Source: a bacterium (GTDB taxonomy: Bacteria; Patescibacteriota; Minisyncoccia; Phycocordibacterales; UBA12445). From it: 64,000 nt of DNA. Position 1 is the stretch's first letter, and every line of letters starts with the position of its first letter. This document shows, in pieces, positions 12,451 to 50,002 of this stretch. The stretch covers positions 1,110-65,109 of the forward strand of contig JAUSIP010000016.1 in NCBI GenBank assembly GCA_030648005.1, written 5' to 3'. A program made the translations under genes and the position numbers. The notes beneath the pieces are model-generated. The model ran no database searches. It was given only the letters and a program-made list of their open reading frames with translations, and was not told the origin of the DNA.

Positions 12451-12507
12451 CTTAGAGTTTAGATTTGTTCGTTGATAAATCCGCCGGCTGGCGGAGGAGG
12501 TGCGTTT

Positions 12508-13380
12508 GTGAAAAAAGAAAAACCGAAGCCGTACTACGGGATCTCATGTCTCCATGACAGAAAGCAGATGCAGGATATCCTGACTTATGTTAAGGCCAAG
12601 AAGATTACCGGTAGGCGGATCATGGCCGGGACACATATGTCGTCTGCATCCTTCCGTGGGTTCGAAGTAGAGCATCCAAAAAGAACATTGAGGCTTGACG
12701 AAGTACGGAGCATCTACTCTTCGATTGAACGACCGAAGCAGCGGGGCCCAGATAGAGATTGGTTCGATGCGAATGTTTTCCGGGTCGTCCAATTCAACAG
12801 TGAAGGTCCGGCTGTGATAGACGCTGAGCTACTTCTTGTTAATCAGATGATACATATTCCAGATGGCGGACGGGAAGTCAACGTTATCGATCAGTTTGTT
12901 GAAGGTTTCCAGATCAACCACGCTCTGCCTAATCCGGATAAACTACGGTGGTTTAGAGACAAACAGATGTGGAGAAATATGCAGATCATCCTTCAGCTTG
13001 GTGAGTTGGCGATGGAAGAAACCGGTAATGATCCGGAGGGTCTGGCTGTGCTAGTGGAGAGCTATGGGGATGCCATCGACTATGTTCTTTGGGATGGGTC
13101 GGAAGATCATCAAGCAGTCTTCGATGCTGAATTTGCCAGGCCGTATCTTCGCGCGATTCGCGAGCATTGCCCAGATCTGGGCATTGCCGTATCAGGCAAT
13201 CTAGGACCAAACAGTATGCGTCTTGTAGATCCTCTTCGTGCAGAATTTCCAGATCTTTCCGTCGATGCAGAGAGTGAACTCCGGGATGAGAACGACTCAT
13301 TACTTATGGCTAAGGCCTTGAGCTATCTTGATGAATGCGCCAAGAGGTGGGAAAAGAAAATAAATATAGAGGATTGTTAA
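12508..13380 (+). CDS. TIM-barrel protein resembling phosphoribosylanthranilate isomerase (TrpF-like); function unknown
   Basis: GGAGG lies 7 nt before GTG 12508 (the ORF track starts at TTG 12472). There is a loose TrpF-like pattern: YYGIS.., VVQFNS, DAIDYVLWDGSE, IAVSGNLGPNSM, DLSVDAESELRD. Confidence 0.4.
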   Translation: MKKEKPKPYYGISCLHDRKQMQDILTYVKAKKITGRRIMAGTHMSSASFRGFEVEHPKRTLRLDEVRSIYSSIERPKQRGPDRDWFDANVFRVVQFNSEGPAVIDAELLLVNQMIHIPDGGREVNVIDQFVEGFQINHALPNPDKLRWFRDKQMWRNMQIILQLGELAMEETGNDPEGLAVLVESYGDAIDYVLWDGSEDHQAVFDAEFARPYLRAIREHCPDLGIAVSGNLGPNSMRLVDPLRAEFPDLSVDAESELRDENDSLLMAKALSYLDECAKRWEKKINIEDC

Positions 13381-13388
13381 GTTGTGTC

Positions 13389-13413
13389 ACCCCCTCCGTT
13401 CGCGGGGGTTTTT
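13389..13413 (+). terminator. Rho-independent terminator
   Basis: ACCCCC-TCCGTTCGC-GGGGGT followed by TTTTT. Confidence 0.6.
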
Positions 13414-13450
13414 AATTTGACTTTCCGGAGTTTTAAGGCTTAATGTAGGT

Positions 13451-14674
13451 ATGGAGAGGCTTAAACAAAAATTACCCGATTCGCCCGGAGTTTATTTCTT
13501 TAAGAAAGGAAAGGGTATTTTGTATATCGGCCGGGCTACGTCACTTCAAAGCCGTGTTAGAAGTTACTTTAATAAAGAGACGATAAATTCCCGTGGGGCT
13601 TTTATTGCGGGAATGGTTGCAGAAGCTACTTCGCTAGTTTGCAGACAGACTGATTCTGTTCTAGAGGCGATAATTCTGGAGGCGGAACTCATTAAAAAAT
13701 ACCAACCAAGATTTAATTCTAAAGAGAAAGATAATAAGAGTTTTTATTATATTGTCGTCACGGCTGAAAATTTTCCTAGAGTACTCATGGTTCGGGGTAG
13801 GAATTTAGAGATGAAAGATAATGATTTCAAAATTAAGAAACTTTTTGGCCCTTTCCCATCCGGCACAGAATTGAAGGAGGCACTCCGAGTCATCAGGAAA
13901 CTTTTCCCATTCAGAGATAAATGTTTGCCAAATTCAGGGAGATCTTGTTTTAACCGCCAAATAGATCTATGCCCGGGTGTTTGTATTGGAGAGGTATCTC
14001 GTGTTGAGTATAAAAAGCAGACTAAAAAAATAGAACTATTTTTGTCGGGCAAGAAGAAGACTGTGATCAGCTTACTTAAGAAGGAGATGAATATTTTTGC
14101 GAATAAAAGAGAATTTGAAAGAGCCGAAATTACAAAAAGAAAGATCTTTGCACTCGAACATATACAGGATGTAAGCTTGATAAAGAGAGAGTCGGCAATA
14201 TTACCGGATTTTGGCGAAAAAAATAAAATATTCAGAATAGAAGCATATGATATCGCACATCAGAGCGGGACGAATAATGTCGGGGTGATGGTTGTCTTAG
14301 AGAACAATGAACCCAATAAGGAAGAGTATAGGAAGTTTAAAATAAGAGGGGATTATCCATCTGATGATTTGCGATCATTGCGCGAGGTGTTGGAGAGACG
14401 GCTGAATCATCCCGAGTGGCGCTTTCCTGACTTGATAGTCGTCGACGGAGGCAAACTTCAGGTGGCTGTGGCGGAAGATATAATGAAGCGCGATGGTCTG
14501 CTTATTCCAATTGTTGGTGTAGTCAAAGATGAACATCATAGGCCTAAGAATATTTTGGGAGATGTTGAGATAATTAAAAAATATGAAAGAAAAATACTGC
14601 TGGCCAATAATGAGGCGCATAGCTACGCTATCAATTATTTTAGGAAACTAAGTATTAAGAGTATGAAGGGATAG
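13451..14674 (+). CDS. uvrC: Excinuclease ABC subunit C, short form lacking the C-terminal (HhH)2 region
   Basis: It has a GIY-YIG N-terminus (GVYFFKKGKGILYIGRATSLQSRV), a UVR-like helix (KREFERAEITKRKIFALEHI) and an endonuclease domain (RIEAYDIAH). Length is 407 aa. Confidence 0.85.
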   Translation: MERLKQKLPDSPGVYFFKKGKGILYIGRATSLQSRVRSYFNKETINSRGAFIAGMVAEATSLVCRQTDSVLEAIILEAELIKKYQPRFNSKEKDNKSFYYIVVTAENFPRVLMVRGRNLEMKDNDFKIKKLFGPFPSGTELKEALRVIRKLFPFRDKCLPNSGRSCFNRQIDLCPGVCIGEVSRVEYKKQTKKIELFLSGKKKTVISLLKKEMNIFANKREFERAEITKRKIFALEHIQDVSLIKRESAILPDFGEKNKIFRIEAYDIAHQSGTNNVGVMVVLENNEPNKEEYRKFKIRGDYPSDDLRSLREVLERRLNHPEWRFPDLIVVDGGKLQVAVAEDIMKRDGLLIPIVGVVKDEHHRPKNILGDVEIIKKYERKILLANNEAHSYAINYFRKLSIKSMKG

Positions 14675-14716
14675 ACTTGAAACTTACAGTTTCAGTACCC
14701 GCGATTGGGTTTTTTA
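14675..14716 (+). terminator. uvrC terminator region (two hairpins plus T-run)
   Basis: GAAACT-TAC-AGTTTC, then ACCC-GCGATT-GGGT followed by TTTTTT. Confidence 0.45.
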
Positions 14717-14731
14717 ATTCGCTCCGCTCTT

Positions 14732-14752
14732 AAAAAAGCCTCAATCGGGCTT
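14732..14752 (-). terminator. Putative terminator downstream of tRNA-Leu(CAA)
   Basis: The minus strand reads AAGCC-CGATTGA-GGCTT followed by TTTTTT. Confidence 0.4.
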
Positions 14753-14817
14753 CAAGTCTCTCACAGAAGACACTTAGGTGTCTTCTTCCGCGTCAAAATT
14801 TCACTTCGTTCAATTTG

Positions 14818-14900
14818 TGCCGCGGGAGAGACTTGAACTCTCACGAGGTTGCCCCCGATAGATTTTGAGTCTATTGCGTCTACCATTCCGCCACCGCGGC
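14818..14900 (-). tRNA. tRNA-Leu (anticodon CAA)
   Basis: Acceptor is GCCGCGG/CCGCGGC. Anticodon arm is ATAGA-CTCAAAA-TCTAT. It has a long variable arm and T arm GAGAG-TTCAAGT-CTCTC. Confidence 0.9.
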
Positions 14901-14946
14901 AGCACCAGATAAAATTATCAAACATTTGACAAAAACGCAAATAAGT

Positions 14947-14975
14947 TTGACAGACTTATCTGAGTCTGCTACAAT
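14947..14975 (+). promoter_or_regulatory. Consensus sigma70-type promoter of the smORF operon
   Basis: TTGACA (14947-14952), 17 nt, then TACAAT (14970-14975). Confidence 0.7.
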
Positions 14976-15016
14976 ATGTAAGTAATATTGAACCTTGACT
15001 AAGGAGGGATTTAAAC

Positions 15017-15100
15017 ATGAAGCAAACGAACGTTGCAGCCCTCATTCTTATCCTGATCACCATTGTGGTTATTGCACTTTCTACCATCGTTCGTCGTTAG
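15017..15100 (+). CDS. 27-aa hydrophobic single-TM peptide (MKQTNVAALILILITIVVIALSTIVRR)
   Basis: AAGGAGGG lies 8 nt upstream of the ATG. It sits downstream of a consensus promoter. It was not in the ORF track, being below the size cut-off and masked by the 99-aa TTG-start ORF. Confidence 0.55.
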   Translation: MKQTNVAALILILITIVVIALSTIVRR

Positions 15101-15108
15101 GAGGATAT

Positions 15109-15294
15109 ATGCTTACAGTCTACTGTACTCTAAAATGTCGATTCCTGGACATCAACCACATGCACTGTGTTAAGTGCGGTGAGGTGTGCAGTACGATGTG
15201 CCATCCGGAGTCATGTCCTGCGCCGGTTAAATTGCACTCTGAACCGGAAACGACCAAGGACATAACGAGACTAGCTTTTCTCGAAGGGCTTTAA
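15109..15294 (+). CDS. 61-aa Cys/His-rich small protein (putative metal-binding)
   Basis: An AGGAGG overlapping the smORF1 stop lies 4 nt before the ATG. It has 7 Cys, including CVKCGEVCSTMCHP (C-x2-C-x3-C-x3-C-H-P). Confidence 0.55.
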   Translation: MLTVYCTLKCRFLDINHMHCVKCGEVCSTMCHPESCPAPVKLHSEPETTKDITRLAFLEGL

Positions 15295-15309
15295 TAAGAC
15301 AAGGTGTCT

Positions 15310-15341
15310 GACCCGCGGTATAACTGCGGGTCTTTTTTTTT
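15310..15341 (+). terminator. Rho-independent terminator of the smORF operon
   Basis: GACCCGC-GGTATAACT-GCGGGTC followed by 9 T. Confidence 0.8.
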
Positions 15342-15365
15342 GTATCCAAAAAAGTTTGTGCTAAA

Positions 15366-16379
15366 ATGCAGGGTATGAATCCTGAAGAGAACAGAGAAAG
15401 TAAGAATGGCCTGAGCCATTCGATATTTTGGATCGAGCTGGAGAAGATCAAACCGAATCCTTACCAGCCGAGGCACGAATTCGATCAGGCACAGTTGAAT
15501 GACTTGGCGGAGTCTATTCGTCAGTACGGGGTTCTTCAGCCCCTTGTTGCCACTAGGAAGGAGTTCAAGACAGAAGATGGCGGACTCGGTGTTGAATATG
15601 AGCTAATCGCTGGAGAGAGGCGTCTCCGTGCTTCGAAGATAGCAGGTATATCACAGGTGCCGGTGGTTATCAGGACAGGTGAGCAATCTGATCTTGTTAA
15701 ACTTGAGCTGGCGATAATTGAGAACATTCAAAGAGAGGATTTAAATTCAGTAGATCGAGCGCGCGCCTTCAAACAACTTGTAGATAAATTTAATTTCAAA
15801 CACGCAGAGATAGCCGTTAAGGTTGGTAAGAGCCGAGAATATGTCTCCAACACCATGAGGATTTTAGATTTGCCGGAGGAGATACTTGAGGCGGTGTCGG
15901 CCAAGAAGATTACCGAAGGACACACAAGGCCACTCTTGATGCTTATTGATCGCAAGGAAGAGCAGATGACGCTCTTCAAGGAGATCATGTACAAAAAGCT
16001 TTCAGTTAGGGAGGCAGAAAGCATCGCCAGGAAGATTGCGGTGGAGAAGGTTAGGAAGAAGGATTATGGCGTTGATCCGGAGATCATAGACTTGGAGTCG
16101 AAGCTGACGGAGAAGCTTGGTACTAGAGTTGCGATAGAGAAGAGGGAATTCGGCGGGCGAGTGACTATCGACTTCTTCTCCAAAGAGGACGTTCACAACC
16201 TCCTTAGTCTTATAACTTCAGGCAAGATTGCTGCTCCGGCGGATCTGGCGAAGTTTGCAAATGGAATAGCCTCCAATGCTCCGACCTCAGAGAACGGCGC
16301 GCCGATAGACGATGTGCCAAAAGCGGAGAAAGATATGGACGATCCTGATCTGTATTCTCTAAAAAATTTTAGCGTTTAA
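15366..16379 (+). CDS. parB: Chromosome partitioning protein ParB/Spo0J
   Basis: It has a ParB N-terminal box (IKPNPYQPRHEFD..LAESIRQYGVLQPLVA...GERRLRASKIAG) and an HTH region. Confidence 0.9.
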   Translation: MQGMNPEENRESKNGLSHSIFWIELEKIKPNPYQPRHEFDQAQLNDLAESIRQYGVLQPLVATRKEFKTEDGGLGVEYELIAGERRLRASKIAGISQVPVVIRTGEQSDLVKLELAIIENIQREDLNSVDRARAFKQLVDKFNFKHAEIAVKVGKSREYVSNTMRILDLPEEILEAVSAKKITEGHTRPLLMLIDRKEEQMTLFKEIMYKKLSVREAESIARKIAVEKVRKKDYGVDPEIIDLESKLTEKLGTRVAIEKREFGGRVTIDFFSKEDVHNLLSLITSGKIAAPADLAKFANGIASNAPTSENGAPIDDVPKAEKDMDDPDLYSLKNFSV

Positions 16380-16411
16380 AACCTCATTACTATCAACATA
16401 TTAAGGGAAAC

Positions 16412-16523
16412 AATTTTTAATTTTTAATTTTGCAATTTTCAATGAATGTCGCAATGAATAAATGTTTAAAATATTGGAGCATTAAAAATTCATTGAAAAT
16501 TGTAAAATTAAAAATTTAAAATT
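16412..16523. repeat. AT-rich 36-bp inverted repeat (34/36 match) with a 40-nt spacer, between convergent parB and the RSH gene
   Basis: The left arm is AATTTTTAATTTTTAATTTTGCAATTTTCAATGAAT (16412-16447). The reverse complement of 16488-16523 differs at 2 positions. Confidence 0.8.
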
Positions 16524-16537
16524 CTCTTCTGATTACG

Positions 16538-18046
16538 CTATCCTCGTTGGCTCTTTTTCTTTGACTCTTCTTGTTCGCCCAGAGCTGCTTTTATTTTTCT
16601 TCTTGCGAAACTCGTTTTGGCATATTCAAGCCACTTGTAAGTTGGCTTACTGTTCTCTCTGGATTGGATTTCTACGATATCTCTATTTTTAAGTACCGTA
16701 TCTAGTGACATAAACTTGCTGTTTATTTTTGCACCGGCCACATGATCGCCAAGATCTGAATGTATTGCATATGCGAAGTCGATAGCCGTTGAAGCTTGAG
16801 GTAGCTCTATGACGTCTCCCTTGGGAGTGAAGACGAAGATCTGATCCTGGAAGAAGTCCAGCTGGATGTTCTCCAAGAACTCCTTCGAGCCCTTCACTGT
16901 CTTCTGCCACTCGATCAGCTGATTTAGCCATCGTAGCTTCTTGCCCATTAATCCTCCTGAATCCGGCTTGCCTGATTCATCGTATGCCAAGTGTGAGGCG
17001 ATACCGTACTCGGCTTCGTTGTGCATCTTCTCTGTTCTGATCTGTACCTCCACCACTCCGCCGTCGCCGGTAAAAATAACAGTATGGATACTCTGGTAAC
17101 CGTTTATTTTGGGTACAGCAATGTAGTCTCTGAGTCTGTCAGGTAGAGGCCGCCAGGTATTGTGTATGATCCCGAGTACACGATAGCAATCTTCCACAGT
17201 TGGCACTATTATTCGCAGGGCCGCGATGTCATATATTTTAGTGAGGTCCATATTGTTCCTCTGGAGTTTCTTATACAAACTGTAATCGTGCTTGATACGA
17301 AAGTCGGTCGTCACTTTGGTCAGGTTCTCCTTTGCGAATCTTTTTCTAAGCTGCTTCTGTATATTTTCTAATTGCTCCAGAGCCTCCTGGTTTTTAATCT
17401 GTCTGATTTTTTTCGTCTCTTCATACTCTTTGGGATATGCATAAGGAAAGGCAGCATCTTCAAGTGCCCCCTTAATCTGTCCCATCCCTAGGCGATTGGC
17501 AATCGGAGCGTAGATTTCGATCGTCTCTGCGGCGATGCGTTTCTTTTTCTCCGGTTTGATGTGCTCGAGGGTCATTACGTTGTGAAGTCGATCCGCAAGC
17601 TTAATCAGTATCACTCGTACATCTTTGGCGGTGGCGATGAAGAGCTTTCGTAAGCTCTCAGCATGACGTTCTATTCCCTGGTACTTTATCTTAGCGAGTT
17701 TTGTCACACCTTGTACTAGAAAAAGTATGTCGGCGCCAAATTCTTTCTGTAGAATTTCCGGAGTTACTAATGTGTCCTCAATCGTGTCATGTAGAAGCCC
17801 GGCTGCTATTGTCTGGGCATCAGCCTGCATCATCTTGGCGAGATTCTTGGCTGTGCCGGTTAGATGTACAAAATACGGTTCGCCTGACAGCCGCATCTGC
17901 CCTTCGTGAGCCTTTTTTGCAAATTCGTACGCTGTAGATACAAGTTTAACATCCTCCGGCGCACCGGAGATCATGAGACTCAAAATTTCTTTAAGTGTAA
18001 CATTGGTTTCTCCATCCGGATTTTTATTTTTTAGTTCCTTTTCCAT
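16538..18046 (-). CDS. RelA/SpoT homologue (bifunctional (p)ppGpp synthetase/hydrolase type)
   Basis: It has an HD domain (LLHDTIEDT), a synthetase domain (YQSIHTVI) and a TGS domain (IFVFTPKGDVIELPQASTAIDFAYAIH). I moved the start to ATG 18046 because the track start at 18112 overlaps topA by 89 nt. Confidence 0.85.
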   Translation of the reverse strand: MEKELKNKNPDGETNVTLKEILSLMISGAPEDVKLVSTAYEFAKKAHEGQMRLSGEPYFVHLTGTAKNLAKMMQADAQTIAAGLLHDTIEDTLVTPEILQKEFGADILFLVQGVTKLAKIKYQGIERHAESLRKLFIATAKDVRVILIKLADRLHNVMTLEHIKPEKKKRIAAETIEIYAPIANRLGMGQIKGALEDAAFPYAYPKEYEETKKIRQIKNQEALEQLENIQKQLRKRFAKENLTKVTTDFRIKHDYSLYKKLQRNNMDLTKIYDIAALRIIVPTVEDCYRVLGIIHNTWRPLPDRLRDYIAVPKINGYQSIHTVIFTGDGGVVEVQIRTEKMHNEAEYGIASHLAYDESGKPDSGGLMGKKLRWLNQLIEWQKTVKGSKEFLENIQLDFFQDQIFVFTPKGDVIELPQASTAIDFAYAIHSDLGDHVAGAKINSKFMSLDTVLKNRDIVEIQSRENSKPTYKWLEYAKTSFARRKIKAALGEQEESKKKSQRG

Positions 18047-20240
18047 CTTCTTTTTTCTCTTCGAGTTTGTGCGGGTTGTGGTTTGGGCAAGTCTTATCGC
18101 TACACCTCTCACTGATAGTCTTCGTACCCGCCATCATTAAATGTGTACAAAGACCGTTCTCTCTTGGATAACCGCAGATCTTGCCAGTTGGTTTCGCTTT
18201 TATAATATGTTTGCAATCCGGATAGTTTGAACATCCGTAGAAAATACCGAACCGGCCTTTCTTCTCCACCATCTGTCCTTTCTTGCAAATCGGACAGATA
18301 ACCCCCGTGCCATGTTGTGCTAACATCGCTGCCTCATCCTTCTTAATGAATTTACATTTCGGATAGTTATTGCAAGAGATGAACTTACCGAATCTGCCTT
18401 CTCTTTCTACCAACATTCCGTCTTTACACTTCTCGCACTTCTCTCCTGTCTCTTTTGGCCCGGCCAGTTCGTTGCCTTCCATCGTACGAGCGCCGGTACA
18501 CTCAGGGAATTTAATACAAGAGTAGAACTTACCTGTACGTCCGAGCTTGATGATCATCAAACCTGCGCAAGTCGGACAGTTCATCCCTTCCGGCGCGTCG
18601 CCCATATTTGTGACTTTTAGAGAATCGTCTTTAGACTTAACCTCCTTCTGGAATGGTCCGTAGAAATCTTTCAAAGTTTTTGTATAATCCTTCTTGCCCT
18701 CAGCGATCTCATCCAGGTTCTCTTCCATCTCTGCGGTGAAGGTGTCGCTGATGATGTTACCGAAGTTGTTTTCTAAGAAGGTGCTGACGACATCTCCGGT
18801 GTCTGTTGGTTTTAAAGTTTTATTCTCTTTATCGACATAACCTCTGGCCTGGATAGTTGCAAGAATAGAAGCGAATGTACTCGGCCTTCCGATGCCTCTC
18901 TTCTCCAACTCTTTAATTAAGCCCGCTTCGCTATATCTGTTTGGTGGTTCAGTCTGTTTCTCTTGTGATGTCGTCTGAATTAGATCGAGTTTCTCGCCGA
19001 CAGCAACCTTCGGCAGTTCTACCTCTTCGCCTCGTGCGCCCGGATCAGCCAAGAGCCAGCCAGGGAAGAGGGTTCGTGAGCCGTTGACGTGGAAGTCGGG
19101 GATGGATTTGCTCTCAATATTTGAGATAATCTTGGTCTTCAATATCTCAGCGTCCTTCATCTGGCTTGCAACTGTCCTCTGCCAGATAAGTTTATATAAT
19201 TTATTTTCTTCTTCATTCTTGCCGGCATTGTCTCTTAAACTATTAGTTGGCCTGATCGCTTCATGCGCTTCTTGCGCGTTCTTGACTCGGCTCTTATATT
19301 GGCGAGATACATATAGTTCTGCGCCATAGATCTTCGTGATAGCACTTTTAATATTCTCCACTGCTTCAGCACCAAGGTTGGTACTATCAGTTCTCATATA
19401 AGATATGTGGCCCTCTTCATAAAGCTTCTGTGCGATTTTCATAGTTCGACTAGGGGAGAAACCGAAGCGAGAGCTGGCGCTCTGTTGAAGGGTTGATGTG
19501 GTGAAGGGCGCTCTCGGGTGCCGCATCCCTTTCTCCTCTTTTATTTCTGTAACTATCCACTGCTCCTTGTTGCCCTTAGTAAGAATTTTGTCCGCCTCTT
19601 CTTTAGTCTCCGGTTCCACCTCACAGGTTGAAGTTATTAGATCTTTACTTTTAGTTTTTGTATCGGCAGTTATTACAAAAAATGTCTTTGGTATAAAAGC
19701 CCGAATCTCACGTTCGCGTTCCATTATTATACGAAGGGCTGGGGACTGTACTCGGCCAGCAGAAAGACCATAACGCACCTTCTTCCAGATCAGTCCTGAT
19801 AAATCATAACCGACAAGTCTGTCTAATATTCTCCTGGCTTCTTGTGCTTTTCTTAGATCTTGGTCAATCTCGCGCGGATGCTGTATCGCCTCCTTCACCG
19901 CCTTCTCGGTGATCTCGTGGAAGACGACGCGCTTCGGATGCTTAAGGTCGCAGGCCTGCTCAATGTGCCAGGCTATAGCCTCACCCTCTCGATCAGGGTC
20001 TGTGGCAAGCAGAACTTCTTCCGCTTTCTTGGCTAACTGCTTGATTTCTGCCACAACATGTTCTTTACCTTTGGAAATTTCGTAATGGGGAATAAAGCCG
20101 CCGGGAATGTCGACTGCTTTCTTGTTGCTCTTCGGGAGATCTCGTATATGCCCGATACTTGCAACCACCTTGTATTTACCATCCAAGTACTTCGAAATAG
20201 TTTTTGCTTTGGCTGGTGACTCAACAATTAATAATTTCAT
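18024..20240 (-). CDS. topA: DNA topoisomerase I with C-terminal zinc-ribbon repeats
   Basis: It has a Toprim N-terminus (MKLLIVESPAKAKTI), the active-site region (ISYMRTDS) and four CxxC...CxxC ribbons. Confidence 0.95.
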   Translation of the reverse strand: MKLLIVESPAKAKTISKYLDGKYKVVASIGHIRDLPKSNKKAVDIPGGFIPHYEISKGKEHVVAEIKQLAKKAEEVLLATDPDREGEAIAWHIEQACDLKHPKRVVFHEITEKAVKEAIQHPREIDQDLRKAQEARRILDRLVGYDLSGLIWKKVRYGLSAGRVQSPALRIIMEREREIRAFIPKTFFVITADTKTKSKDLITSTCEVEPETKEEADKILTKGNKEQWIVTEIKEEKGMRHPRAPFTTSTLQQSASSRFGFSPSRTMKIAQKLYEEGHISYMRTDSTNLGAEAVENIKSAITKIYGAELYVSRQYKSRVKNAQEAHEAIRPTNSLRDNAGKNEEENKLYKLIWQRTVASQMKDAEILKTKIISNIESKSIPDFHVNGSRTLFPGWLLADPGARGEEVELPKVAVGEKLDLIQTTSQEKQTEPPNRYSEAGLIKELEKRGIGRPSTFASILATIQARGYVDKENKTLKPTDTGDVVSTFLENNFGNIISDTFTAEMEENLDEIAEGKKDYTKTLKDFYGPFQKEVKSKDDSLKVTNMGDAPEGMNCPTCAGLMIIKLGRTGKFYSCIKFPECTGARTMEGNELAGPKETGEKCEKCKDGMLVEREGRFGKFISCNNYPKCKFIKKDEAAMLAQHGTGVICPICKKGQMVEKKGRFGIFYGCSNYPDCKHIIKAKPTGKICGYPRENGLCTHLMMAGTKTISERCSDKTCPNHNPHKLEEKKEDGKGTKK

Positions 20241-20297
20241 TATCTATCCATAGTAGCCACCTTTCGCAATCCGTGTCAAATAATAGCGGAGAGGATA

Positions 20298-21164
20298 TTA
20301 TAATTCCCTCTGAATTTTTCCTCCAAGTTCTTTAATCAGCCCCTTGATCTCCATCATTGAAAGCACGACATTTATCTCACTTGTTTTAATTTCAGATTCT
20401 CTAATCAAGTCATCACGTGTCATGGCTTCTACAGAGAGTAGTTTCATTACTTTAATTTCATTTTCGGAAAGAGTTGTTAAGTCTAATTCTTGTTGGCCAT
20501 CTTTCCTTGCAAGCGAGAGCGCTTCAAGTAGATCATCGCTGGAGCTGATCGGCGTGGCACCCTGTTTGATCAGTCTGTTTGTACCGTTCGAGTTTAAAGA
20601 GAAGATAGAGCCGGGAACTGCAAACAAGTCTTTATTGTATTCAGTTGCGAGTCTGGCAGTGATAAGCGTACCGGATTTATTTTGAGCTTCTATGACCAAG
20701 ATGGCCCGTGACATACCCGCCATGATCCTATTGCGAGCTGGAAAGGTGTGCGTGCCGGCAGGCATTAGTGGAGGCAGCTCAGAGAGCAGTGCACCGCCGG
20801 AGCGGACTATCTCGTCGGCCAAGTCTTTATTGGAGTGTGGATGCAGAACTTTCCTGTCCAAACCAGAACCGGGCACGCCTATCGTTGTGATGCCAGCCTG
20901 GAGTGCTGCTTTGTGAGCTATTGAGTCTATGCCGAGCGCCAAGCCGGATACAATCACAACTTTCTCGCCCCGCAAGCCTGCGATAATCTTCTCGCACGCC
21001 TCCTTGCCGTAGGTTGAAAACTTTCTTGAGCCAACTACTGTCAAAAAGATAAACTCCTCATCCGGCAGTACTCCTTCTAAATATAACTCTTTCGGCGGTT
21101 GAGGAATCTCAAAGAGTGATGCCGGAAATTCTTCTTTATTTAGTTTTCTAATCTGACCCTGCAT
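20298..21164 (-). CDS. dprA: DNA processing protein DprA (Smf)
   Basis: LTVVGSRKFSTYGKE, SGLALGIDSIAHKAAL and a C-terminal winged-helix-like tail. Confidence 0.9.
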   Translation of the reverse strand: MQGQIRKLNKEEFPASLFEIPQPPKELYLEGVLPDEEFIFLTVVGSRKFSTYGKEACEKIIAGLRGEKVVIVSGLALGIDSIAHKAALQAGITTIGVPGSGLDRKVLHPHSNKDLADEIVRSGGALLSELPPLMPAGTHTFPARNRIMAGMSRAILVIEAQNKSGTLITARLATEYNKDLFAVPGSIFSLNSNGTNRLIKQGATPISSSDDLLEALSLARKDGQQELDLTTLSENEIKVMKLLSVEAMTRDDLIRESEIKTSEINVVLSMMEIKGLIKELGGKIQREL

Positions 21165-42912: not shown

Positions 42913-42960
42913 ATTCTTTTCCACACACACTTATACTGAATTTGGGGTATAATTCTGTAC

Positions 42961-44007: not shown

Positions 44008-44011
44008 GATT

Positions 44012-45271
44012 ATGAAAAGAAAAGTTGTTGAAGATCTAATATTTAAAAAGGCGCCCGTCTATCAAATGGACGAAGTCAATGACAACAGGGTGGTGAGTAA
44101 TGGGAACCGAGGCTCCGGAAGAAAGTTTTATGTGTATGCACTTATTGTTATAGCCGGCTCGGTCCTGGTACTTGGCTTGTTTGTACTTTTGTCCTCAACC
44201 TTCTCAAGGGTTTCTGTGATGGTTTTAACGACAAATCGAGAGATTATATTGGATGACCTTGTTCCACTCAACAAAGATGGCGCAGGGGGCGGGATAAAGT
44301 ACGAGATGATGAGTTTGAAGGAAATGGAGTCTGGATATGTTCCTACTAGCGGTAATAAACTCGTGTCTAAGTACGCTACTGGTATTGTGACTATTTACAA
44401 TTCATTTAGCCCCGCGTCCCAAATTTTGGTTGCCGGCACAAGGCTTGAGACCACAGATGGTAAGATCTACAAAATAGACAAAACAGTATCGATCCCAGGC
44501 ATGTCGTCAGTTGCTGTATCTGTTAAGGCCGGAGAAGCGGGCGTAAAATACAATATACCCCCGACGAACTTTACTATTCCAGGCCTTAAAGACAGCCCGA
44601 AGTTTTCGAAGATATATGCTAAATCTGTTAAAGATATTTCCGGAGGCTGGTCCGGGGAATTGAAGGTGGCTTCCTCGGCGGATATCACAAAGACGCGGCT
44701 GAATTTACAGGACAGTCTAAAAAAGAAACTGATCAAGAAGGCTCTAGCGGAAACCCCGAAAGGTTTCTTACTTTGGGAAGATGGGATGCTTATCAGTTTC
44801 AGCGACAACACAATAGACAACTCTTCTTTAATTGGGGCTGATGGAGATAAGATGAATCTCCAGGTGAATGGTGTACTCCGCGCAATAATGATATTAGAAG
44901 ATGATCTTAAAAATTTTATAGTAGCCAAAAAGAAAGCTGAGCTGGTCGGTGGGACTAAGTTTGTTATCGACAATCCAGGCAAACTTAGTTTTAAGATATT
45001 AAATAAGGATAAAATAAACACAGACGGAACAAGCAGCGTTCTTGCAAGGATAACGGGCAAACAATATATAATGTGGGATTTTGATGAAAGTTCTCTTAAG
45101 AATAAACTGAGTGGTGTAAAACGATCTAAATATCAGGATGTTTTCAAGGAGTTCCCGGCGATAGAAGAGGCTGCCGCAGTGTTCTACCCATCATGGGCTT
45201 TCTATTTTCCAATCGACACAAATAGGATAGAAATAGCCTTAGCACCTAAGGAGGGGGTTGACTTAAAATAG
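44012..45271 (+). CDS. Hypothetical membrane-anchored protein (419 aa)
   Basis: It has a single N-terminal TM helix (FYVYALIVIAGSVLVLGLFVLLSS), and its start lies 4 nt after the preceding gene's stop. Confidence 0.5.
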   Translation: MKRKVVEDLIFKKAPVYQMDEVNDNRVVSNGNRGSGRKFYVYALIVIAGSVLVLGLFVLLSSTFSRVSVMVLTTNREIILDDLVPLNKDGAGGGIKYEMMSLKEMESGYVPTSGNKLVSKYATGIVTIYNSFSPASQILVAGTRLETTDGKIYKIDKTVSIPGMSSVAVSVKAGEAGVKYNIPPTNFTIPGLKDSPKFSKIYAKSVKDISGGWSGELKVASSADITKTRLNLQDSLKKKLIKKALAETPKGFLLWEDGMLISFSDNTIDNSSLIGADGDKMNLQVNGVLRAIMILEDDLKNFIVAKKKAELVGGTKFVIDNPGKLSFKILNKDKINTDGTSSVLARITGKQYIMWDFDESSLKNKLSGVKRSKYQDVFKEFPAIEEAAAVFYPSWAFYFPIDTNRIEIALAPKEGVDLK

Positions 45272-45287
45272 GTTAATCTGCTATGAT
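45258..45287 (+). promoter_or_regulatory. Promoter of the infA-rpmJ-rpsM... operon
   Basis: TTGACT-18 nt-TATGAT, located in the 3' end of the upstream CDS. Confidence 0.5.
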
Positions 45288-45304
45288 AGCCGAGCAATTT
45301 GAAT

Positions 45305-45544
45305 ATGGAAAATAGTAAAGATATAGTCCACCTGGATCAAGAAGTAGACGGTACTGTTGTTGAAACATTACCCAATATGATGTTCCGGGTAGACCTTAGT
45401 CCGCCAGCTGGCGGAGGCAAAATCATTTTGGCCTATCTTGCGGGCAAAATGAGGATGAATCGAATCAAGGTTCTAATTGGCGATAAGGTAAGAGTCAAGC
45501 TTGATATCTATGGAGTTAAGGGCAGAGTAATTAGAAGATATTAA
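45305..45544 (+). CDS. infA: Translation initiation factor IF-1, with a small in-frame palindromic insertion
   Basis: GTVVETLPNMMFRV...GKMRMNRIKVLIGDKVRV. The extra SPPAGGG is encoded by TCCGCCAGCTGGCGGA. Confidence 0.9.
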   Translation: MENSKDIVHLDQEVDGTVVETLPNMMFRVDLSPPAGGGKIILAYLAGKMRMNRIKVLIGDKVRVKLDIYGVKGRVIRRY

Positions 45545-45547
45545 TAC

Positions 45548-45661
45548 ATGAAAGTAAGATCATCATTAAAAAAGTTGTGTGCGAAGTGTAAGATGGTCCG
45601 TCGCAAGGGCTGTCTTTATGTCGTATGCGATCAGCCTAAACACAAGCAAAGGCAAGGATAA
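45548..45661 (+). CDS. rpmJ: Ribosomal protein L36
   Basis: [37 protein letters not shown]. It is below the ORF-track cut-off. Confidence 0.9.
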
Positions 45662-45665
45662 ATAT

Positions 45666-46046
45666 ATGAGAATCTCAGGTATAACAATTCCGGATAATAA
45701 AAGACTAGAAATAGCACTAACTGCTGTTTATGGGATTGGCAGAAGTTTAGCTCAGAAGATGCTGGATGAGCAGTCTATTCCACACAGCACAAAGGCAACC
45801 GAGCTGACGCCAGACCAGGAGAATATCCTACGAAAGCGTGTTGAGTCAGAGAAGGTAGAAGGTGAGCTAAAGAGAATAATTGCCGGCAACATAAAGCGCC
45901 TAAAAGACATCAAGGCATACAGGGGCACAAGACACCAGAAGAGCCTTCCTTCCCGTGGACAAAGGACGAAGACGAACTCCCGAACACGAAGAGGTAACGT
46001 AAGAAAGACCATGGGTTCCGGAAGGAAGAAGGTTGAGAAGAAGTAA
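45666..46046 (+). CDS. rpsM: Ribosomal protein S13
   Basis: MRISGITIPDNKRLEIALTAVYGIG. I trimmed the start from the track's 45579. Confidence 0.95.
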   Translation: MRISGITIPDNKRLEIALTAVYGIGRSLAQKMLDEQSIPHSTKATELTPDQENILRKRVESEKVEGELKRIIAGNIKRLKDIKAYRGTRHQKSLPSRGQRTKTNSRTRRGNVRKTMGSGRKKVEKK

Positions 46047-46055
46047 AAAAACAAA

Positions 46056-46499
46056 ATGGGAAAGACAAAAATTATAAATAAACCGGACGCAGAGCAGAAG
46101 TCCGAAAGCAAGGTGGGCGAAGTTAAGCCTGTGGTTAAGAATGCCAAGCAAAGACTTTCTTCTGGTACTCTATACGTTCAGGCAACCTACAATAACACTA
46201 AGTTACTCTTCACCGACAACGACGGTAACTCTATCGCAGCATCTTCATCTGGAGCTCTCGGTTTTAGTGGCGCTAAGAAGGGTACCCCTTTCGCAGCCGC
46301 CAAGGTGGGCGAGCTTATCGGCGACAAGGCGGCCGCTCTGGGTGTTAAGGATGCTAATGTCGTGGTTAAGGGTGTGGGGGCAGGTCGAGAGTCGGCCATT
46401 AGAGCCTTCTCTTCTAAGGGGATCAACATCTCAGCTATCCGAGATGAGACCCCAATTCCTCACAACGGTCCAAAGCCTAAAAAGCCGAGAAGAGTATAA
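46056..46499 (+). CDS. rpsK: Ribosomal protein S11
   Basis: GTLYVQATYNNTKLLFTDNDGN...GAKKGTPFAA. Confidence 0.95.
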   Translation: MGKTKIINKPDAEQKSESKVGEVKPVVKNAKQRLSSGTLYVQATYNNTKLLFTDNDGNSIAASSSGALGFSGAKKGTPFAAAKVGELIGDKAAALGVKDANVVVKGVGAGRESAIRAFSSKGINISAIRDETPIPHNGPKPKKPRRV

Positions 46500-46513
46500 A
46501 AAATAAATAAATC

Positions 46514-47131
46514 ATGTTAGTAAAACGAAAATATAAAATTTGCAAAAGACTGGGAGATGGAATCTTTAACAAGTGTCAGACACCAGGTTTTTCCCGTGCA
46601 ATGGCTCCAAAAAAGGGCGCGATAAAGAAGAGACCACCACGAGCAAGGTCAGAATACGGCAACCAGCTTATAGAAAAGCAAAAGGTGCGATATACATATC
46701 TAATAAGAGAGAAACAGTTTTCTAACTACGTAGAGAAGGCTCAGAGTACTAAGGGTGTTAAGGCTATAGACCATCTATACACATTACTTGAGAGGAGACT
46801 CGACAACGTAGTCTACCGAGCTGGATTCTCGCCTTCAAGAGCCGGGTCAAGACAGCTCGTTTCTCACGGACATATTACAGTCAACGGCACACGTGTCACT
46901 ATTCCTTCTTATCAGCTCAAGATTGGAGATGAAGTTAGAATCAGAGATGGCAGTAAAGATAAGACTGTTTTTAAGGGATTAACAGACAAGCTGAAGAACT
47001 ATAAGATGCCAAAATGGCTTAAGTTTGAAGCCGATAAGATGGAGATTGGAGTTCTTTCTGACCCTACTCCACTCGAGGCTGGCTCCACCTTGAATTTGAA
47101 TTCGGTGATGGAGTTTTATAGTAGAACGTAG
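46514..47131 (+). CDS. rpsD: Ribosomal protein S4
   Basis: S4 N-terminal region plus S4 RNA-binding domain (RLDNVVYRAGFSPSRAGSRQLVSHGHITVNG). Confidence 0.95.
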   Translation: MLVKRKYKICKRLGDGIFNKCQTPGFSRAMAPKKGAIKKRPPRARSEYGNQLIEKQKVRYTYLIREKQFSNYVEKAQSTKGVKAIDHLYTLLERRLDNVVYRAGFSPSRAGSRQLVSHGHITVNGTRVTIPSYQLKIGDEVRIRDGSKDKTVFKGLTDKLKNYKMPKWLKFEADKMEIGVLSDPTPLEAGSTLNLNSVMEFYSRT

Positions 47132-47158
47132 TATTTTGCGAGGTTTCCACCCGAGGAC

Positions 47159-47187
47159 TTGCAAAAAGTCTGGGAATAGTTTATAAT
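47159..47187 (+). promoter_or_regulatory. Internal promoter upstream of rpoA
   Basis: TTGCAA-17 nt-TATAAT. Confidence 0.55.
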
Positions 47188-47222
47188 AATCAACTAAATA
47201 TTTAATATTTTTTTATAAAAAT

Positions 47223-48206
47223 ATGCCAAATTATAACATCGTTCTTCCATCGAAACCCCGAGTCGTCTCTGAAGCGGATTTTAAGGGTGTTTACGAGATA
47301 GATGGGCTTTATCCGGGCTATGGCCACACACTAGGAAACTCACTAAGAAGGATTATTTTATCCTCTTTGCCGGGTGCTGCTATCACATCCCTAAAGATTG
47401 TCGGTGTTGACCATGAGTTTTCTACTATCGAGGGCGTTAAGGAGGATGTTATTACTATACTTTTAAGCCTTAAGAAGGTCAGATTCAGACTGATTGATGA
47501 TAATCCTCAGAAGGTATTCCTTTCTGTGTCTGGAGCTAAGAAAGTAACCGCAGGGGACATAGAGGCACCGGCGGGAGTAGAAGTTTTAACTCCAGACTTC
47601 CACATAGCTACTCTAACCGACAAGAGCTCCAAGCTTGAGATTGAATTTGTGGTTGAGAAAGGACTTGGATTTGTGCCTAAGGAGGTTATCCACAAGGAGA
47701 AGGTTGATATCGGCACTATCTCCGTCGACGCCATCTTCACTCCTATTAGAAGGGTCAACTATGAGGTTGAGAACATGCGAGTTGGAGACAGGACAGACTA
47801 CAACAGACTACGCCTTTTCATCGAAACAGACGGCACTCTTACTGCCAGAGAAGCCCTTGAAACATCCATCTACACTATGATCTCACAGCTTAAGGCGATA
47901 GTTGGCTTCATAGAAGAAGTTCCTGAGGTTGCTGAGGAGGATAAGATCAGCGACGAGGAGTCTAAGGGTGGTGAGCAAGGTGGAGACAATGAGTCTGCTA
48001 GACAAGAAGATGTTATGAAGATCCGGATCGAAGATGTAAGCTTCTCTACAAGGACACAGAAGGCCTTATCTGAAGCAAGCATCAGGACAGTTGGCGGATT
48101 AGCCAGGAAGCGAGAGGAGGATCTCCGCAATATCGACGGTTTAGGCGAGAAGGGTATCTCTGAGATCAAGAGAGCCCTGGGTAATTATGGGATCAACCTT
48201 AAATAA
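47223..48206 (+). CDS. rpoA: DNA-directed RNA polymerase subunit alpha
   Basis: It has the N-terminal dimerisation domain (GHTLGNSLRRILLSS-type) and a C-terminal HhH domain. Confidence 0.95.
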   Translation: MPNYNIVLPSKPRVVSEADFKGVYEIDGLYPGYGHTLGNSLRRIILSSLPGAAITSLKIVGVDHEFSTIEGVKEDVITILLSLKKVRFRLIDDNPQKVFLSVSGAKKVTAGDIEAPAGVEVLTPDFHIATLTDKSSKLEIEFVVEKGLGFVPKEVIHKEKVDIGTISVDAIFTPIRRVNYEVENMRVGDRTDYNRLRLFIETDGTLTAREALETSIYTMISQLKAIVGFIEEVPEVAEEDKISDEESKGGEQGGDNESARQEDVMKIRIEDVSFSTRTQKALSEASIRTVGGLARKREEDLRNIDGLGEKGISEIKRALGNYGINLK

Positions 48207-48227
48207 ATAAGAAACTAAAGAAATTCC

Positions 48228-48578
48228 ATGAGACACCACAATAGTGTAAGAAAATTAAGCAGAGAGACTGGGCAGAGGAAGGCACTGTTGCGTTCACTTG
48301 CGGAGAGTCTTGTTATCCACGGCAAGATCAAGACTACCGAGGCCAAGGCTAAGGAGTTGCGTCCGTTCATCGAGAAGCTAGTCACAAAAGGCAAGGACGG
48401 CACATTGGCTTCAAGAAGAATTTTAATCTCTAGACTTGGAAGCCCTGAGGTGGTTAAGAAGATGGTAGATGAGATAGCCAAGAAGTACACAGAGAGAAAA
48501 GGGGGCTATACCAGGATACTTAAGCTGGGCACAAGAGGAGGAGATGCCAGCCCGATGGCTTTAATCGAATTTGTATAA
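48228..48578 (+). CDS. rplQ: Ribosomal protein L17
   Basis: MRHHNSVRKLSRETGQRKALLRSLAESL. Confidence 0.95.
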   Translation: MRHHNSVRKLSRETGQRKALLRSLAESLVIHGKIKTTEAKAKELRPFIEKLVTKGKDGTLASRRILISRLGSPEVVKKMVDEIAKKYTERKGGYTRILKLGTRGGDASPMALIEFV

Positions 48579-48582
48579 TCAT

Positions 48583-48933
48583 ATGACTACCAAATACACA
48601 ATAGACGCCAGCGGAAGGACGATAGGCAGGATAGCATCCGAAGCCGCTTTTATCATCATGGGCAAGAATACAGCGCAGTTTGCCAAGAATATCGCCCCTA
48701 AGGTATCCGTAAGCATCGTCAATGCTGCCAAGACTAAGATTACAGACAAGAAGAAGGAGGAGAAGGAGTATTACCACTTCACCGGCCACCCGAGTGGAAG
48801 AAAGAGCAATACACTAGGAATGGTGCTTGATAAGAAGGGACATGAAGAGGTCTTCCGCAATGCTGTATACGGCATGCTTCCGAAGAATAAGTTAAGGAAG
48901 GAGATGCTGAAGAATTTGATAGTTACAGAATAA
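48583..48933 (+). CDS. rplM: Ribosomal protein L13
   Basis: IDASGRTIGRIASEAAFIIMGK. I prefer the ATG at 48583 over the TTG at 48571. Confidence 0.9.
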   Translation: MTTKYTIDASGRTIGRIASEAAFIIMGKNTAQFAKNIAPKVSVSIVNAAKTKITDKKKEEKEYYHFTGHPSGRKSNTLGMVLDKKGHEEVFRNAVYGMLPKNKLRKEMLKNLIVTE

Positions 48934-48940
48934 TATTTAA

Positions 48941-49357
48941 ATGATGAAAACAGAGACTAAAGGAAAATATTTCGAGGCTGTAGGCAGAAGAAAGACTTCA
49001 ACTGCCAGAGTAAGACTTTACCCTCACGAGTCTACAAAGAACGTTTTTGTAATAAACGGCAAGGATATCAAAGAGTACTTTCCAACAGCTGAGATGAAGT
49101 ACATTGTAGCTTCTCCATTTGAGACATCAGCTACAGTTGCCAAGTATGAGGTTACAGTAGTGGCTACAGGTGGCGGGATACACTCTCAGGCTGAGGCGGT
49201 AAGGCACGGCATCTCAAGAGCCTTGCTTCTGACTGACGGTGAGCTAAGAAAGCTCCTCAAAAAGGCTAAGATGCTCAAGAGAGACCCACGAGCTAAGGAG
49301 CGAAGGAAATTCGGCCTCAAGAAGGCAAGAAAGGCTCCACAGTGGAGCAAGCGATAG
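48941..49357 (+). CDS. rpsI: Ribosomal protein S9
   Basis: GRRKTSTARVRL and the C-terminal KARKAPQWSKR. Confidence 0.95.
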   Translation: MMKTETKGKYFEAVGRRKTSTARVRLYPHESTKNVFVINGKDIKEYFPTAEMKYIVASPFETSATVAKYEVTVVATGGGIHSQAEAVRHGISRALLLTDGELRKLLKKAKMLKRDPRAKERRKFGLKKARKAPQWSKR

Positions 49358-49372
49358 TTCAAAAATTAAAAA

Positions 49373-49396
49373 GATCCCGGAAACGGGGTCTTTTTG
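49373..49396 (+). terminator. Terminator of the ribosomal protein operon
   Basis: GATCCCG-GAAA-CGGGGTC followed by TTTTT. Confidence 0.8.
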
Positions 49397-49410
49397 TTTG
49401 GCATGAGAAA

Positions 49411-49430
49411 ACCGCCAGAGGTCTGGCGGT
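49411..49430 (-). terminator. Hairpin/terminator of the 49479-49736 gene (CCGCCAG/CTGGCGG motif family)
   Basis: ACCGCCAG-AGGT-CTGGCGGT, with TTTTC following on the minus strand. Confidence 0.55.
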
Positions 49431-49478
49431 TTGGCGGCGGTAAGCAGTAGGTCTGCTTAGTACTTAAAAGAGGAGTGA

Positions 49479-49736
49479 TTAGACGTGCATCCAACCGTTG
49501 TCATCTTCATGGTAAATCCAGCCGAACTTGCCCATCTCACGGACCTCTTCTTCGGACATGTAGAGAACAAACATGTCGAAGTCTCCAACAAAGATACCAG
49601 CCTCGCTGAGGTCTATTTTCTCATCGAGATCAGCGTAGTAATTCTTCAGGATCTGAAGACCACCCAGAACACCATTCTTTTTGCTGGGATCCGATGAGTC
49701 TTCATCAAGAATCTCTACTGCTCGCTTGACGTTCAT
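49479..49736 (-). CDS. Hypothetical small acidic protein (85 aa)
   Basis: It has its own consensus promoter, a GGGAG SD and a terminator. It is Asp/Glu-rich with no recognised motif. Confidence 0.55.
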   Translation of the reverse strand: MNVKRAVEILDEDSSDPSKKNGVLGGLQILKNYYADLDEKIDLSEAGIFVGDFDMFVLYMSEEEVREMGKFGWIYHEDDNGWMHV

Positions 49737-49797
49737 TTTGCTTCTACTCCCGTCTGTTGATTTAGTTGTCGAATAACTCGGCTAATTTCTATCTTCA

Positions 49798-49827
49798 AGT
49801 ATAGCATACTAAATATCAAACTGTCAA
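49798..49827 (-). promoter_or_regulatory. Consensus promoter of the acidic-protein gene
   Basis: The minus strand reads TTGACA (49827-49822), 18 nt, then TATACT (49803-49798). Confidence 0.6.
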
Positions 49828-49900
49828 TAGCAAATACAAAATACCATTATTTTATAAGGGGGATATTTTAATTTTGATTTCAGCAGATTCTATGTGATCA

Positions 49901-50002
49901 CAAGTTACTAAGTCTACTCATCCGCCCAGGGCGGATTGCGTGGACTAAGTACTTGCCGACCCCGACTCACGGTTTTTGTTTTTTAGGAGAGAAAACAAAA
50001 AC
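49901..50002. other. Structured intergenic segment (two long hairpins)
   Basis: CAAGTTACTAAGTCTAC...GTGGACTAAGTACTTG encloses TCCGCC-CAG-GGCGGA. It is followed by GTTTTTGTTTT-TTAGGAGAG-AAAACAAAAAC. Confidence 0.4.

Follow-up and report, generated by a model that had tools for sequence, protein, structure and literature searches.

A palindromic in-frame expansion of the beta2-beta3 turn of initiation factor IF-1 in a patescibacterial lineage, probably of local origin

Rickettsia palindromic elements (RPEs) are approximately 100-150 bp in length, number in the tens, and can be recognised in many genes as insertions. Repetitive extragenic palindromes (REPs) occur outside genes in tens to hundreds of copies, bear a conserved head of the GTAG type, and are accompanied by a RAYT (REP-associated tyrosine transposase) gene. 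Perfect hairpins are also created and maintained by template switching (PMC8794818, PMC5453318, PMC8604942), in which a single quasi-palindrome mutation can give a perfect inverted repeat from neighbouring sequence (PMC5453318, PMC8794818), and which acts in coding regions, where several residues are changed at once (PMC8604942) and perfect stems are kept without selection. The locus described here is infA, the gene for translation initiation factor IF-1, on a stretch of 64,000 nucleotides (the window) of contig JAUSIP010000016.1 from a bacterium of the Patescibacteriota (assembly GCA_030648005.1, positions 1,110 to 65,109 of the forward strand). In the original prediction, which was made from the letters of the window, four copies of one GC-rich hairpin with CCGCC...GGCGG arms were described, one of them in frame within infA. 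The infA palindrome proved to be a genuine in-frame expansion, restricted to a lineage, that lengthens the beta2-beta3 turn from three to seven codons. On balance, it probably arose as a local hairpin or template-switch insertion in a tolerant loop and not as the copy of a mobile hairpin. We infer both the template-switch origin and the lack of function of the hairpin itself.

The infA product matched the TIGR00008 model with 65.5 bits (cut-off 61.15), PF01176 is recorded on all of its IF-1 homologues, and the gene order infA-rpmJ-rpsM-rpsK-rpsD-rpoA-rplQ-rplM-rpsI is conserved. Alignment with all solved IF-1s placed a gap at ...VDL[SPPA]GGGK..., opposite E26-N27-G28 of the Escherichia coli protein. 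The original prediction put other IF-1 proteins at about three residues shorter; the actual gap is four residues, both for E. coli and for all other solved IF-1s. The comparison set consisted of the 120 nearest clusters among 5.8 billion proteins, and the turn was expanded in only five of them, nearly all others having a three-residue turn of the form G-x-G. The expanded turns are those of the window protein (P0001, SPPAGGG), P0004 (GPPAGG), P0003 (APAGGES), P0002 (GVSGTPAQAG), and P0009 (GPGQSVGTS). The short turn is found in P0005 and P0006, which are equally close, and in approximately 110 other near relatives. P0005 and P0003 differ only in two N-terminal residues and in the turn, which reads GAG in P0005. 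The nearest IF-1 sequences with a taxon name are from Candidatus Vogelbacteria (Paceibacteria/Patescibacteria). The protein and codon alignments bear out the proposed in-frame insertion of the infA motif into a loop of a highly conserved protein, and the cluster comparison showed the insertion to be lineage-specific, neither ancient nor universal.

The turn-coding DNA was compared among relatives whose genomes are approximately 70-76% identical to the window at the nucleotide level in the infA region. The closest match is L004, a second species (approximately 76% identity), which reads GGT CCG CCA GCT GGC GGA and carries a palindrome identical to that of the window at 16 of 16 positions. L004 was obtained from another sample (SRR33086898) than the window (SRR13727527); since the same palindrome is present in an independent sample, it is no assembly artefact, and the insertion is older than the split between the window and L004. 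The sequence of L001 is GCT CCA GCG GGC GGA, a decayed relative of the palindrome, and L002 has a different perfect palindrome of 14 nt, CGCCTGCGCAGGCG, with the CGCC/GGCG outer arms in common. L005 and L008, which have no insertion, read GGT GCT GGT and GGA GGG GGC, respectively. Scans of genome and metagenome contigs recovered no PPAGG-type IF-1 alleles beyond those of the nearest-cluster set.

In a set of 108 distinct alleles, drawn from 168 Paceibacteria loci, the segment from FRV to GKMR measured 12-22 residues. Expansions unrelated to that of the window were found at this turn in many Paceibacteria lineages (L021/L108, L076, L067, L019/L104, L120, L124, and L081) and reach +9 residues; the turn of L021 contains a tandem 9-nt duplication (CCAGATACA CCAGATGGA) and that of L076 a 12-nt palindrome (CTCGTCGACGAG). 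The beta2-beta3 turn is a site where Paceibacteria IF-1s tolerate length change. The AlphaFold 2 model of the infA product, with a mean predicted local distance difference test (pLDDT) score of 79, has strands at residues 13-22, 26-31, 39-45, 61-66, and 72-78. This model is a five-stranded oligonucleotide/oligosaccharide-binding (OB) fold, and Foldseek aligned it with E. coli IF-1 in 30S complexes (E = 4e-8, root-mean-square deviation 1.1 Å over 70 columns). The insertion forms loop 32-38 between beta2 and beta3, where the block 31-40 has a mean pLDDT of 67. It lies in a surface turn, the tip of the beta2-beta3 hairpin, which by OB-fold topology is at the opposite end of beta2 from the LPN loop, which we take to be the loop that enters helix 44 in 1HR0. 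The LPN motif, GKMR, and the C-terminal GR..R show little or no variation. As in the known loop-length variation of the IF-1/eIF1A OB folds, the core fold and the ribosome-contact motifs are kept and the length of a surface loop is altered; unlike the window IF-1, all solved bacterial IF-1s have a short turn. Residue-level contacts of the beta2-beta3 turn in ribosome-bound IF-1 were not found in the literature consulted. Directly upstream of infA, positions 44012-45271 encode a protein of 419 aa that weakly matches the Baseplate_J-like family (PF04865, E = 1.5e-5), and this neighbour is syntenic in Vogelbacteria-like genomes (L001, L005, L008, and L171).

Table 1. Positions of the hairpins, of the second family of hairpin arms, and of the associated gene features in the window.
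Feature	Position	Strand	Sequence	Context
infA	45305-45544	+	...FRVDLSPPAGGGKIILAYLAGKM...	translation initiation factor IF-1, 79 aa
Expanded beta2-beta3 turn, SPPAGGG	45398-45418	+	AGT CCG CCA GCT GGC GGA GGC	three codons, G-x-G, in relatives
Hairpin 1	12480-12495	+	TCCGCCGGCTGGCGGA, near-palindrome with one G.T mispair	57-nt spacer between clpB (end 12450) and the TIM-barrel gene
Hairpin 2	45400-45415	strand-neutral	TCCGCCAGCTGGCGGA, perfect 16-nt palindrome	within the turn-coding part of infA
Hairpin 3	49411-49430		ACCGCCAG-AGGT-CTGGCGGT	intrinsic terminator spanning 49409-49432 on the minus strand
Hairpin 4	49921-49935		TCCGCC-CAG-GGCGGA	tip (49920-49936, ATCCGCC-CAG-GGCGGAT) of the long intergenic hairpin 49900-49955
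Hairpin 5	907-928	+	TCCGCC-TATGCCTAAG-GGCGGA(GG)	inside the gene for a 1744-aa peptidoglycan-binding surface protein
Shine-Dalgarno-like motif and GTG start	Shine-Dalgarno 12495-12502, GTG 12508-12510	+	AGGAGGTG	TIM-barrel gene 12508-13380
CCCGC...GCGGG hairpin arms	52512-52528, 62768-62784, 63911-63933, 15312		CCCGC-TTA-GCGGG shared by two copies	

The positions and sequences of the four hairpins first described are exact, and a fifth hairpin with the same arms, absent from that list, was found at 907 (Table 1). As had been reported, the copies at 12480 and 45400 are alike, with 18 of 19 nt identical when flanks are included, and the identity extends to the GG past the dyad. As RNA, the infA palindrome would form a 6-bp stem with a 4-nt loop (approximately -11 kcal/mol). 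GC content is approximately 44% throughout the window. The 14-mer family represented at these two sites gave four strand-matches against 0.23 expected, and none of 100 shuffles reached four. Two 16-nt near-palindromes within a Hamming distance of 1 were obtained in 21 of 2000 order-3 Markov simulations of the window (p ~0.01). The pattern TCCGCC-N0-12-GGCGGA was counted four times in the window and 0.09 times in shuffles, and TCCGCC/GGCGGA ranks first among the 6-mer inverted-repeat arms of the window (P = 2e-5 conditional on the real k-mer counts, approximately 0.04-0.08 after Bonferroni correction for all 6-mers). A second arm family, CCCGC/GCGGG, is nearly as enriched (P = 5e-5 given the k-mer counts). 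The enrichment of TCCGCC/GGCGGA is genuine but modest, and the pattern was picked post hoc.

The codon usage of the window bears on how such arms could form. The commonest Gly-Gly codon pair is GGC GGA (20 of 120), GGC GGA GG. accounts for 6 of the 24 Gly-Gly-Gly triplets, and all three PP...GGG strings are written CCG CC. followed by GGC GGA GG. in their Gly part. Under the proposed origin, the turn-coding DNA of the clade would have been a run of Gly/Ala codons (G-x-G) in which local Gly-Gly(-Gly) was most often written GGC GGA (GG.). The reverse complement of GGC GGA, one base out of register, would read CCG CC. and encode Pro-Pro. A hairpin-mediated replication error, by intrastrand template switching or slippage, would then put TCCGCC upstream of GGCGGA, and residues of the Pro-Pro-Ala-Gly type would be gained where the spacer keeps the frame. 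The product may have been retained since the turn tolerates length change, and later template switches or decay may have remodelled the turn into the new perfect palindrome of L002 and the degraded one of L001. Such an origin would account for the shared arms and the shared reading frame, for the remodelled yet perfect dyad of L002, for the substitution pattern at 907, and for the lack of signs of transposition. The inserted bases are the reverse complement of the adjacent ones, TCCGCCAG and CTGGCGGA together forming a perfect palindrome, as do CGCCTGC and GCAGGCG in L002. As a side observation, the nine-glycine run of the surface protein at 3566-3598 alternates as GGC GGA GGT GGC GGA GGC GGA GGA GGA and contains three overlapping GGCGGAGG strings, GGCGGAGG being the right arm string of the hairpins.

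The 907 copy encodes SPPMPKGGG and aligns with a conserved GIGPAMPKG-GG block in 11 homologues, with no gap at the left arm. At this site L172 reads GGC CCG TCT ATG CCT AAG GGC GGA GGA; the right arm GGCGGAGG is also present there, and the left arm differs by point substitutions only. The gapless homologue alignment and the point-only differences rule out a third insertion at 907. The substitutions that set the left arm apart from that of L172 number three, and two of them raise the complementarity to GGCGGA. The infA segment, a loop-less perfect palindrome, and this substitution pattern at 907 both resemble described template-switch mutations. The infA case is unlike them in that the ancestral arm and the four-point signature were not recovered, in that codons were added to a near-universal translation factor, and in that near-identical sequence lies 33 kb away. 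The palindromy of the Vogelbacteria subclade is in keeping with a mutational process by which perfect inverted repeats are generated and regenerated, or with weak selection for the hairpin. All five PPAGG codons are identical between L004 and the window, compared with 53% of the codons for conserved residues elsewhere in the gene (p ~0.04), and two tests set after the hypothesis, combined with the negative result for L001, gave p ~0.02.

Several observations weigh against a local hairpin or template-switch origin. An ancestral allele already carrying a GCTGGCGGA arm was not recovered. Because the insertion-free relatives lack GCTGGCGGA and have the codons given above for L005 and L008, at least two steps are needed and the origin is not reconstructable; because the lineages are about equally distant (47-58% codon identity), the ancestor cannot be polarised. 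The copies at 907 and 45400 both have TTAG before the arm. Standard infA alleles yield natural palindromes of 12-16 nt from the codons of YLAGK (CTT GCC GGC AAG), and Fisher combination of the palindromy tests over independent insertion alleles was not significant (approximately 0.18). The sequence of the window genome examined amounted to approximately 70 kb in all. Finally, a local origin does not predict the 18/19 identity with the non-coding 12480 copy, which under it has to be chance, at the probability obtained for the 16-mer and a lower one with flanks, or convergence on GCTGGCGGAGG. This match, the only one that the local reading leaves over, is either a coincidence of approximately 1% or may point to copying between sites or to a function that the two loci share.

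A mere by-product of the encoded peptide is a possible but rather unlikely alternative to the hairpin-mediated origin. Triplet slippage would have produced Pro, Ala, and Gly codons, the symmetry would follow from their complementarity, and the other matches, that at 12480 included, would be coincidence. The families of Pro-Pro and Gly-Gly codons, CCN CCN and GGN GGN, are complementary to each other, and the arm enrichment is partly accounted for because PP...GG codons are partly self-complementary. When the proteins of the window were held fixed and synonymous codons were resampled, CCGCC...GGCGG arose approximately 0.85 times per resample and at least three times in coding DNA in 111 of 1500 trials (7%). 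When the IF-1 peptide was held fixed, the alleles of the window and L004 yielded a stem of at least 8 in 2.5-2.9% of trials (p = 0.026 for the window), and palindromy as strong as that observed was reached in 4.6% for L002 (p = 0.046) and in 12% for the 12-nt palindrome of L076; the other insertion alleles gave no palindromy signal. The difference between insertion and standard infA alleles in long stems was not significant, and the modest corrected enrichment of the arms is likewise in keeping with a by-product. LAGK written as CTT GCC GGC AAG (L160, L105, L006, and others) is itself a 12-nt palindrome, which in L160 is lengthened to 16 nt, ATCTTGCCGGCAAGAT. An encoded peptide can by itself give rise to perfect palindromes in coding DNA, and since standard alleles carry the YLAGK-codon palindromes, infA palindromes are not peculiar to insertions. 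Given these natural palindromes and the non-significant combined test, the idea that turn insertions are generally palindromic was set aside as unproven. What speaks against a peptide by-product is that independent small p values agree (the codon identity of L004, L002 at ~0.05, and the 12480 match), that the T...A extension is present in every copy, with the 6-mer version reached at least twice in coding DNA in only 6 of 1500 resamples (0.4%), and that three of three PP...GGG strings use the same codons.

A functional dyad common to infA and the TIM-barrel gene appears unlikely. It would act as an RNA stem, in translation, stability, or processing, or, in a variant of this explanation, as a 16-bp operator for a dimeric regulator downstream of both promoters. 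The 12480 copy abuts the Shine-Dalgarno-like AGGAGGTG, whose first A is the last base of the hairpin and which stands 5 nt before the GTG, and the infA copy is followed by GGAGG; the 18/19 identity takes in the GG past the dyad. A Shine-Dalgarno-like motif precedes only 3 of the 39 long open reading frames (ORFs) of the window, and the leaders of clpB, uvrC, infA, rpmJ, rpsK, rpsD, rpoA, rplQ, and rpsI, with those of all ribosomal-protein genes, are AT-rich. The genome represented by the window almost never uses Shine-Dalgarno sequences, and the 12508 gene is a striking exception. Promoter-like sites were located upstream of both copies, at 12420-12448 and 45258-45287. The 16 nt are exact in L004 despite the much lower codon identity elsewhere, L002 keeps perfect symmetry with CGCC/GGCG arms while the centre changes from AGCT to TGCGCA, and the position of the predicted RNA hairpin is common to the window, L004, and L002. 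In L001, no hairpin is predicted and the symmetry is lost, and the segment is absent from L005, L008, and approximately 110 relatives; infA expression is therefore independent of the segment. Local folding of the 12480 and infA hairpins was no better than that of shuffles (z = +0.65 and -0.17, respectively). There are two sites only, with no candidate regulator and no T-run, and Rfam 15 covariance models matched none of the hairpins, the only hits in the window being four tRNAs.

For the gene following the 12480 copy, the NCBI annotation gives a 290-aa protein from GTG 12508. Two matches to its family were found by a word-indexed search and 923 cluster representatives (50% clustering) by an exhaustive HMMER search; full-length homologues start with M-x(2-7)-PYIG, which aligns with GTG 12508 and not with TTG 12472. 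Because the homologue N-termini align in this way, the 12480 hairpin lies in the 5' untranslated region (UTR). The original prediction noted that 12480 would read PPAGGGG from TTG 12472; the reading is correct as sequence and is probably not translated, and residues 1-10 of the alternative TTG-started protein have pLDDT values below 50. Translation as PPAGGGG, attractive in a genome poor in Shine-Dalgarno sequences, is disfavoured by the homologue starts. The protein is predicted to be a TIM barrel (pLDDT 85.8), with Foldseek matches only to TIM-barrel enzymes and no Pfam, NCBIfam, PHROG, or PADLOC match. Conserved motifs of the family are PYIGITGF, GFQLN..WP, DYVLxDxSGGxG, GVAGGL, and SIDAEGxLRD. 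Close relatives are very rare in Paceibacteria; the closest is L169, whose contig begins inside the gene. A nuclease or regulator recognising the dyad was ruled out for this gene by the TIM-barrel prediction and by the large family without such matches.

It is improbable that a miniature GC-rich palindromic unit of approximately 16-19 nt (TCCGCC-RGCT-GGCGGAGG) was copied between loci, with infA and 12480 as two insertions. Copying would proceed by templated repair at ectopic sites or by a process like that of REP/RAYT or of RPEs, and survival in coding DNA would be confined to the frame that gives PPAGG(G). For such a unit speak the status of the infA segment as an insertion relative to orthologues, the near-identical 12480 copy, the three open forward frames, and the precedent of Rickettsia RPEs, which are in-frame palindromic insertions in conserved genes (PMC1779305). 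The infA insertion resembles RPEs further in encoding a surface peptide that leaves the fold intact; it differs in having a unit of 16-19 nt, two near-identical copies, and one demonstrable insertion. The hairpins are like REPs and bacterial interspersed mosaic elements in being short, GC-rich, and imperfect, in recurring in one genome, and in lying, in some cases, near gene ends. They are unlike them in that no REP numbers, head, or RAYT gene were found in the available sequence, in which not all ORFs were screened for Y1 transposases.

The density of the motif also speaks for a copied unit. Five CCGCC...GGCGG hairpins are present in the window, compared with approximately 24 in 1.37 Mb of other Paceibacteria DNA (approximately 1.1 per 64 kb) and with none in 41 kb of the three closest relatives, L001, L005, and L008, which have 39-40% GC. 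None was found in a further 5.8 kb of the same genome, from L170 and L171, which belong to the sample of the window (100% identity). Near-identical copies number two in 64 kb, with three looser ones, and there are just these two in approximately 70 kb. The many, mostly extragenic copies of a REP/RAYT-like unit were not seen in the sequence examined, and insertion was found in infA only, not in several genes as for RPEs, the surface-protein copy being no insertion. In the 17 kb that the window shares in synteny with L005 and L001, twelve further insertions are specific to the window, none of them palindromic, and no second copies of the L001, L002, L006, and L076 insertion sequences occur on their contigs, the L001 and L002 variants being single. 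The infA insertion predates the split from L004. The copies share no flank past the TTAG of two of them, with no GTAG-type sequence and no target-site duplications, and the neighbouring gene product is a predicted TIM-barrel enzyme, not a nuclease or transposase.

The proposal that the four hairpins are copies of one element was not sustained, as the third is a terminator, the fourth is the tip of a separate hairpin, and no copies were found in relatives. On the minus strand, 49409-49432 reads AAACCGCCAGACCUCUGGCGGUUUUCUC, a 10-bp GC-rich stem with a 4-nt loop followed by a U-run (fold z = -5.0), located 47 nt past the stop codon of a minus-strand ORF of 85 aa (49479-49736). Copy 3 is an ordinary intrinsic terminator of this ORF, like other Rho-independent terminators with CCGCC/GGCGG stems; unlike these, the hairpins of infA and 12480 lack a U-run and are not located at the end of a gene. 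Flanked by A- and T-runs, terminators of the CCGCC...GGCGG type are common in other Paceibacteria (L088, L065, L103, and L155). At the syntenic position of L005, neither the 85-aa ORF nor the copy-3 hairpin was found, only the rpsI terminator. Copy 4 has nothing but the 6-nt arms in common with the others and forms the tip of an imperfect hairpin of approximately 55 nt (fold z = -3.1 and -3.3 on the two strands) with no counterpart near tRNA-Glu of L005. Rfam returned nothing for 49360-50160 even at E<=1. The hairpins other than that of infA are independent GC-rich structures on the common string GGCGGA(GG), not copies of a mobile unit.

Two further features of the intergenic regions were observed. 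Approximately 18 nt past the long hairpin 49900-49955 there is a T-run, TTTTTGTTTTTT, at approximately 49974-49987; the stretch 49900-49990, which has the promoter region of the 85-aa ORF on one side and tRNA-Glu on the other, could be a small RNA. Elsewhere, positions 8100-8139 form a loop-less perfect palindrome of 40 nt, AAGCTGTTTTATTCTGACGGCCGTCAGAATAAAACAGCTT, whose arms are 20 bp long. It lies between the end of a plus-strand ORF at 8076 and that of a minus-strand ORF at 8165 and is followed by another hairpin, of 10 bp, at 8161-8185. The region 8100-8185 is probably a bidirectional terminator region, in which the perfect 20-bp dyad is unusually long.

Active copying of a 16-19 nt unit in Vogelbacteria into UTRs and, as Pro-Pro-Ala-Gly-Gly, into surface loops of essential proteins including IF-1 is very improbable; if true, it would be a much smaller analogue, in reduced Patescibacteria genomes, of Rickettsia RPEs or mitochondrial GC clusters. 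The infA insertion would matter more if the unit were mobile or the hairpin regulatory, and neither is indicated by the approximately 70 kb of sequence. Expansions of the IF-1 turn by 3 to 9 residues seem to be a peculiarity of the Patescibacteria. If the local hairpin or template-switch origin is right, the infA palindrome would be a natural example of a hairpin-forming replication error that adds residues to a very conserved bacterial protein. This would not be surprising; it would show which loop of IF-1 absorbs insertions, and would be useful for IF-1 engineering and for the annotation of Patescibacteria.

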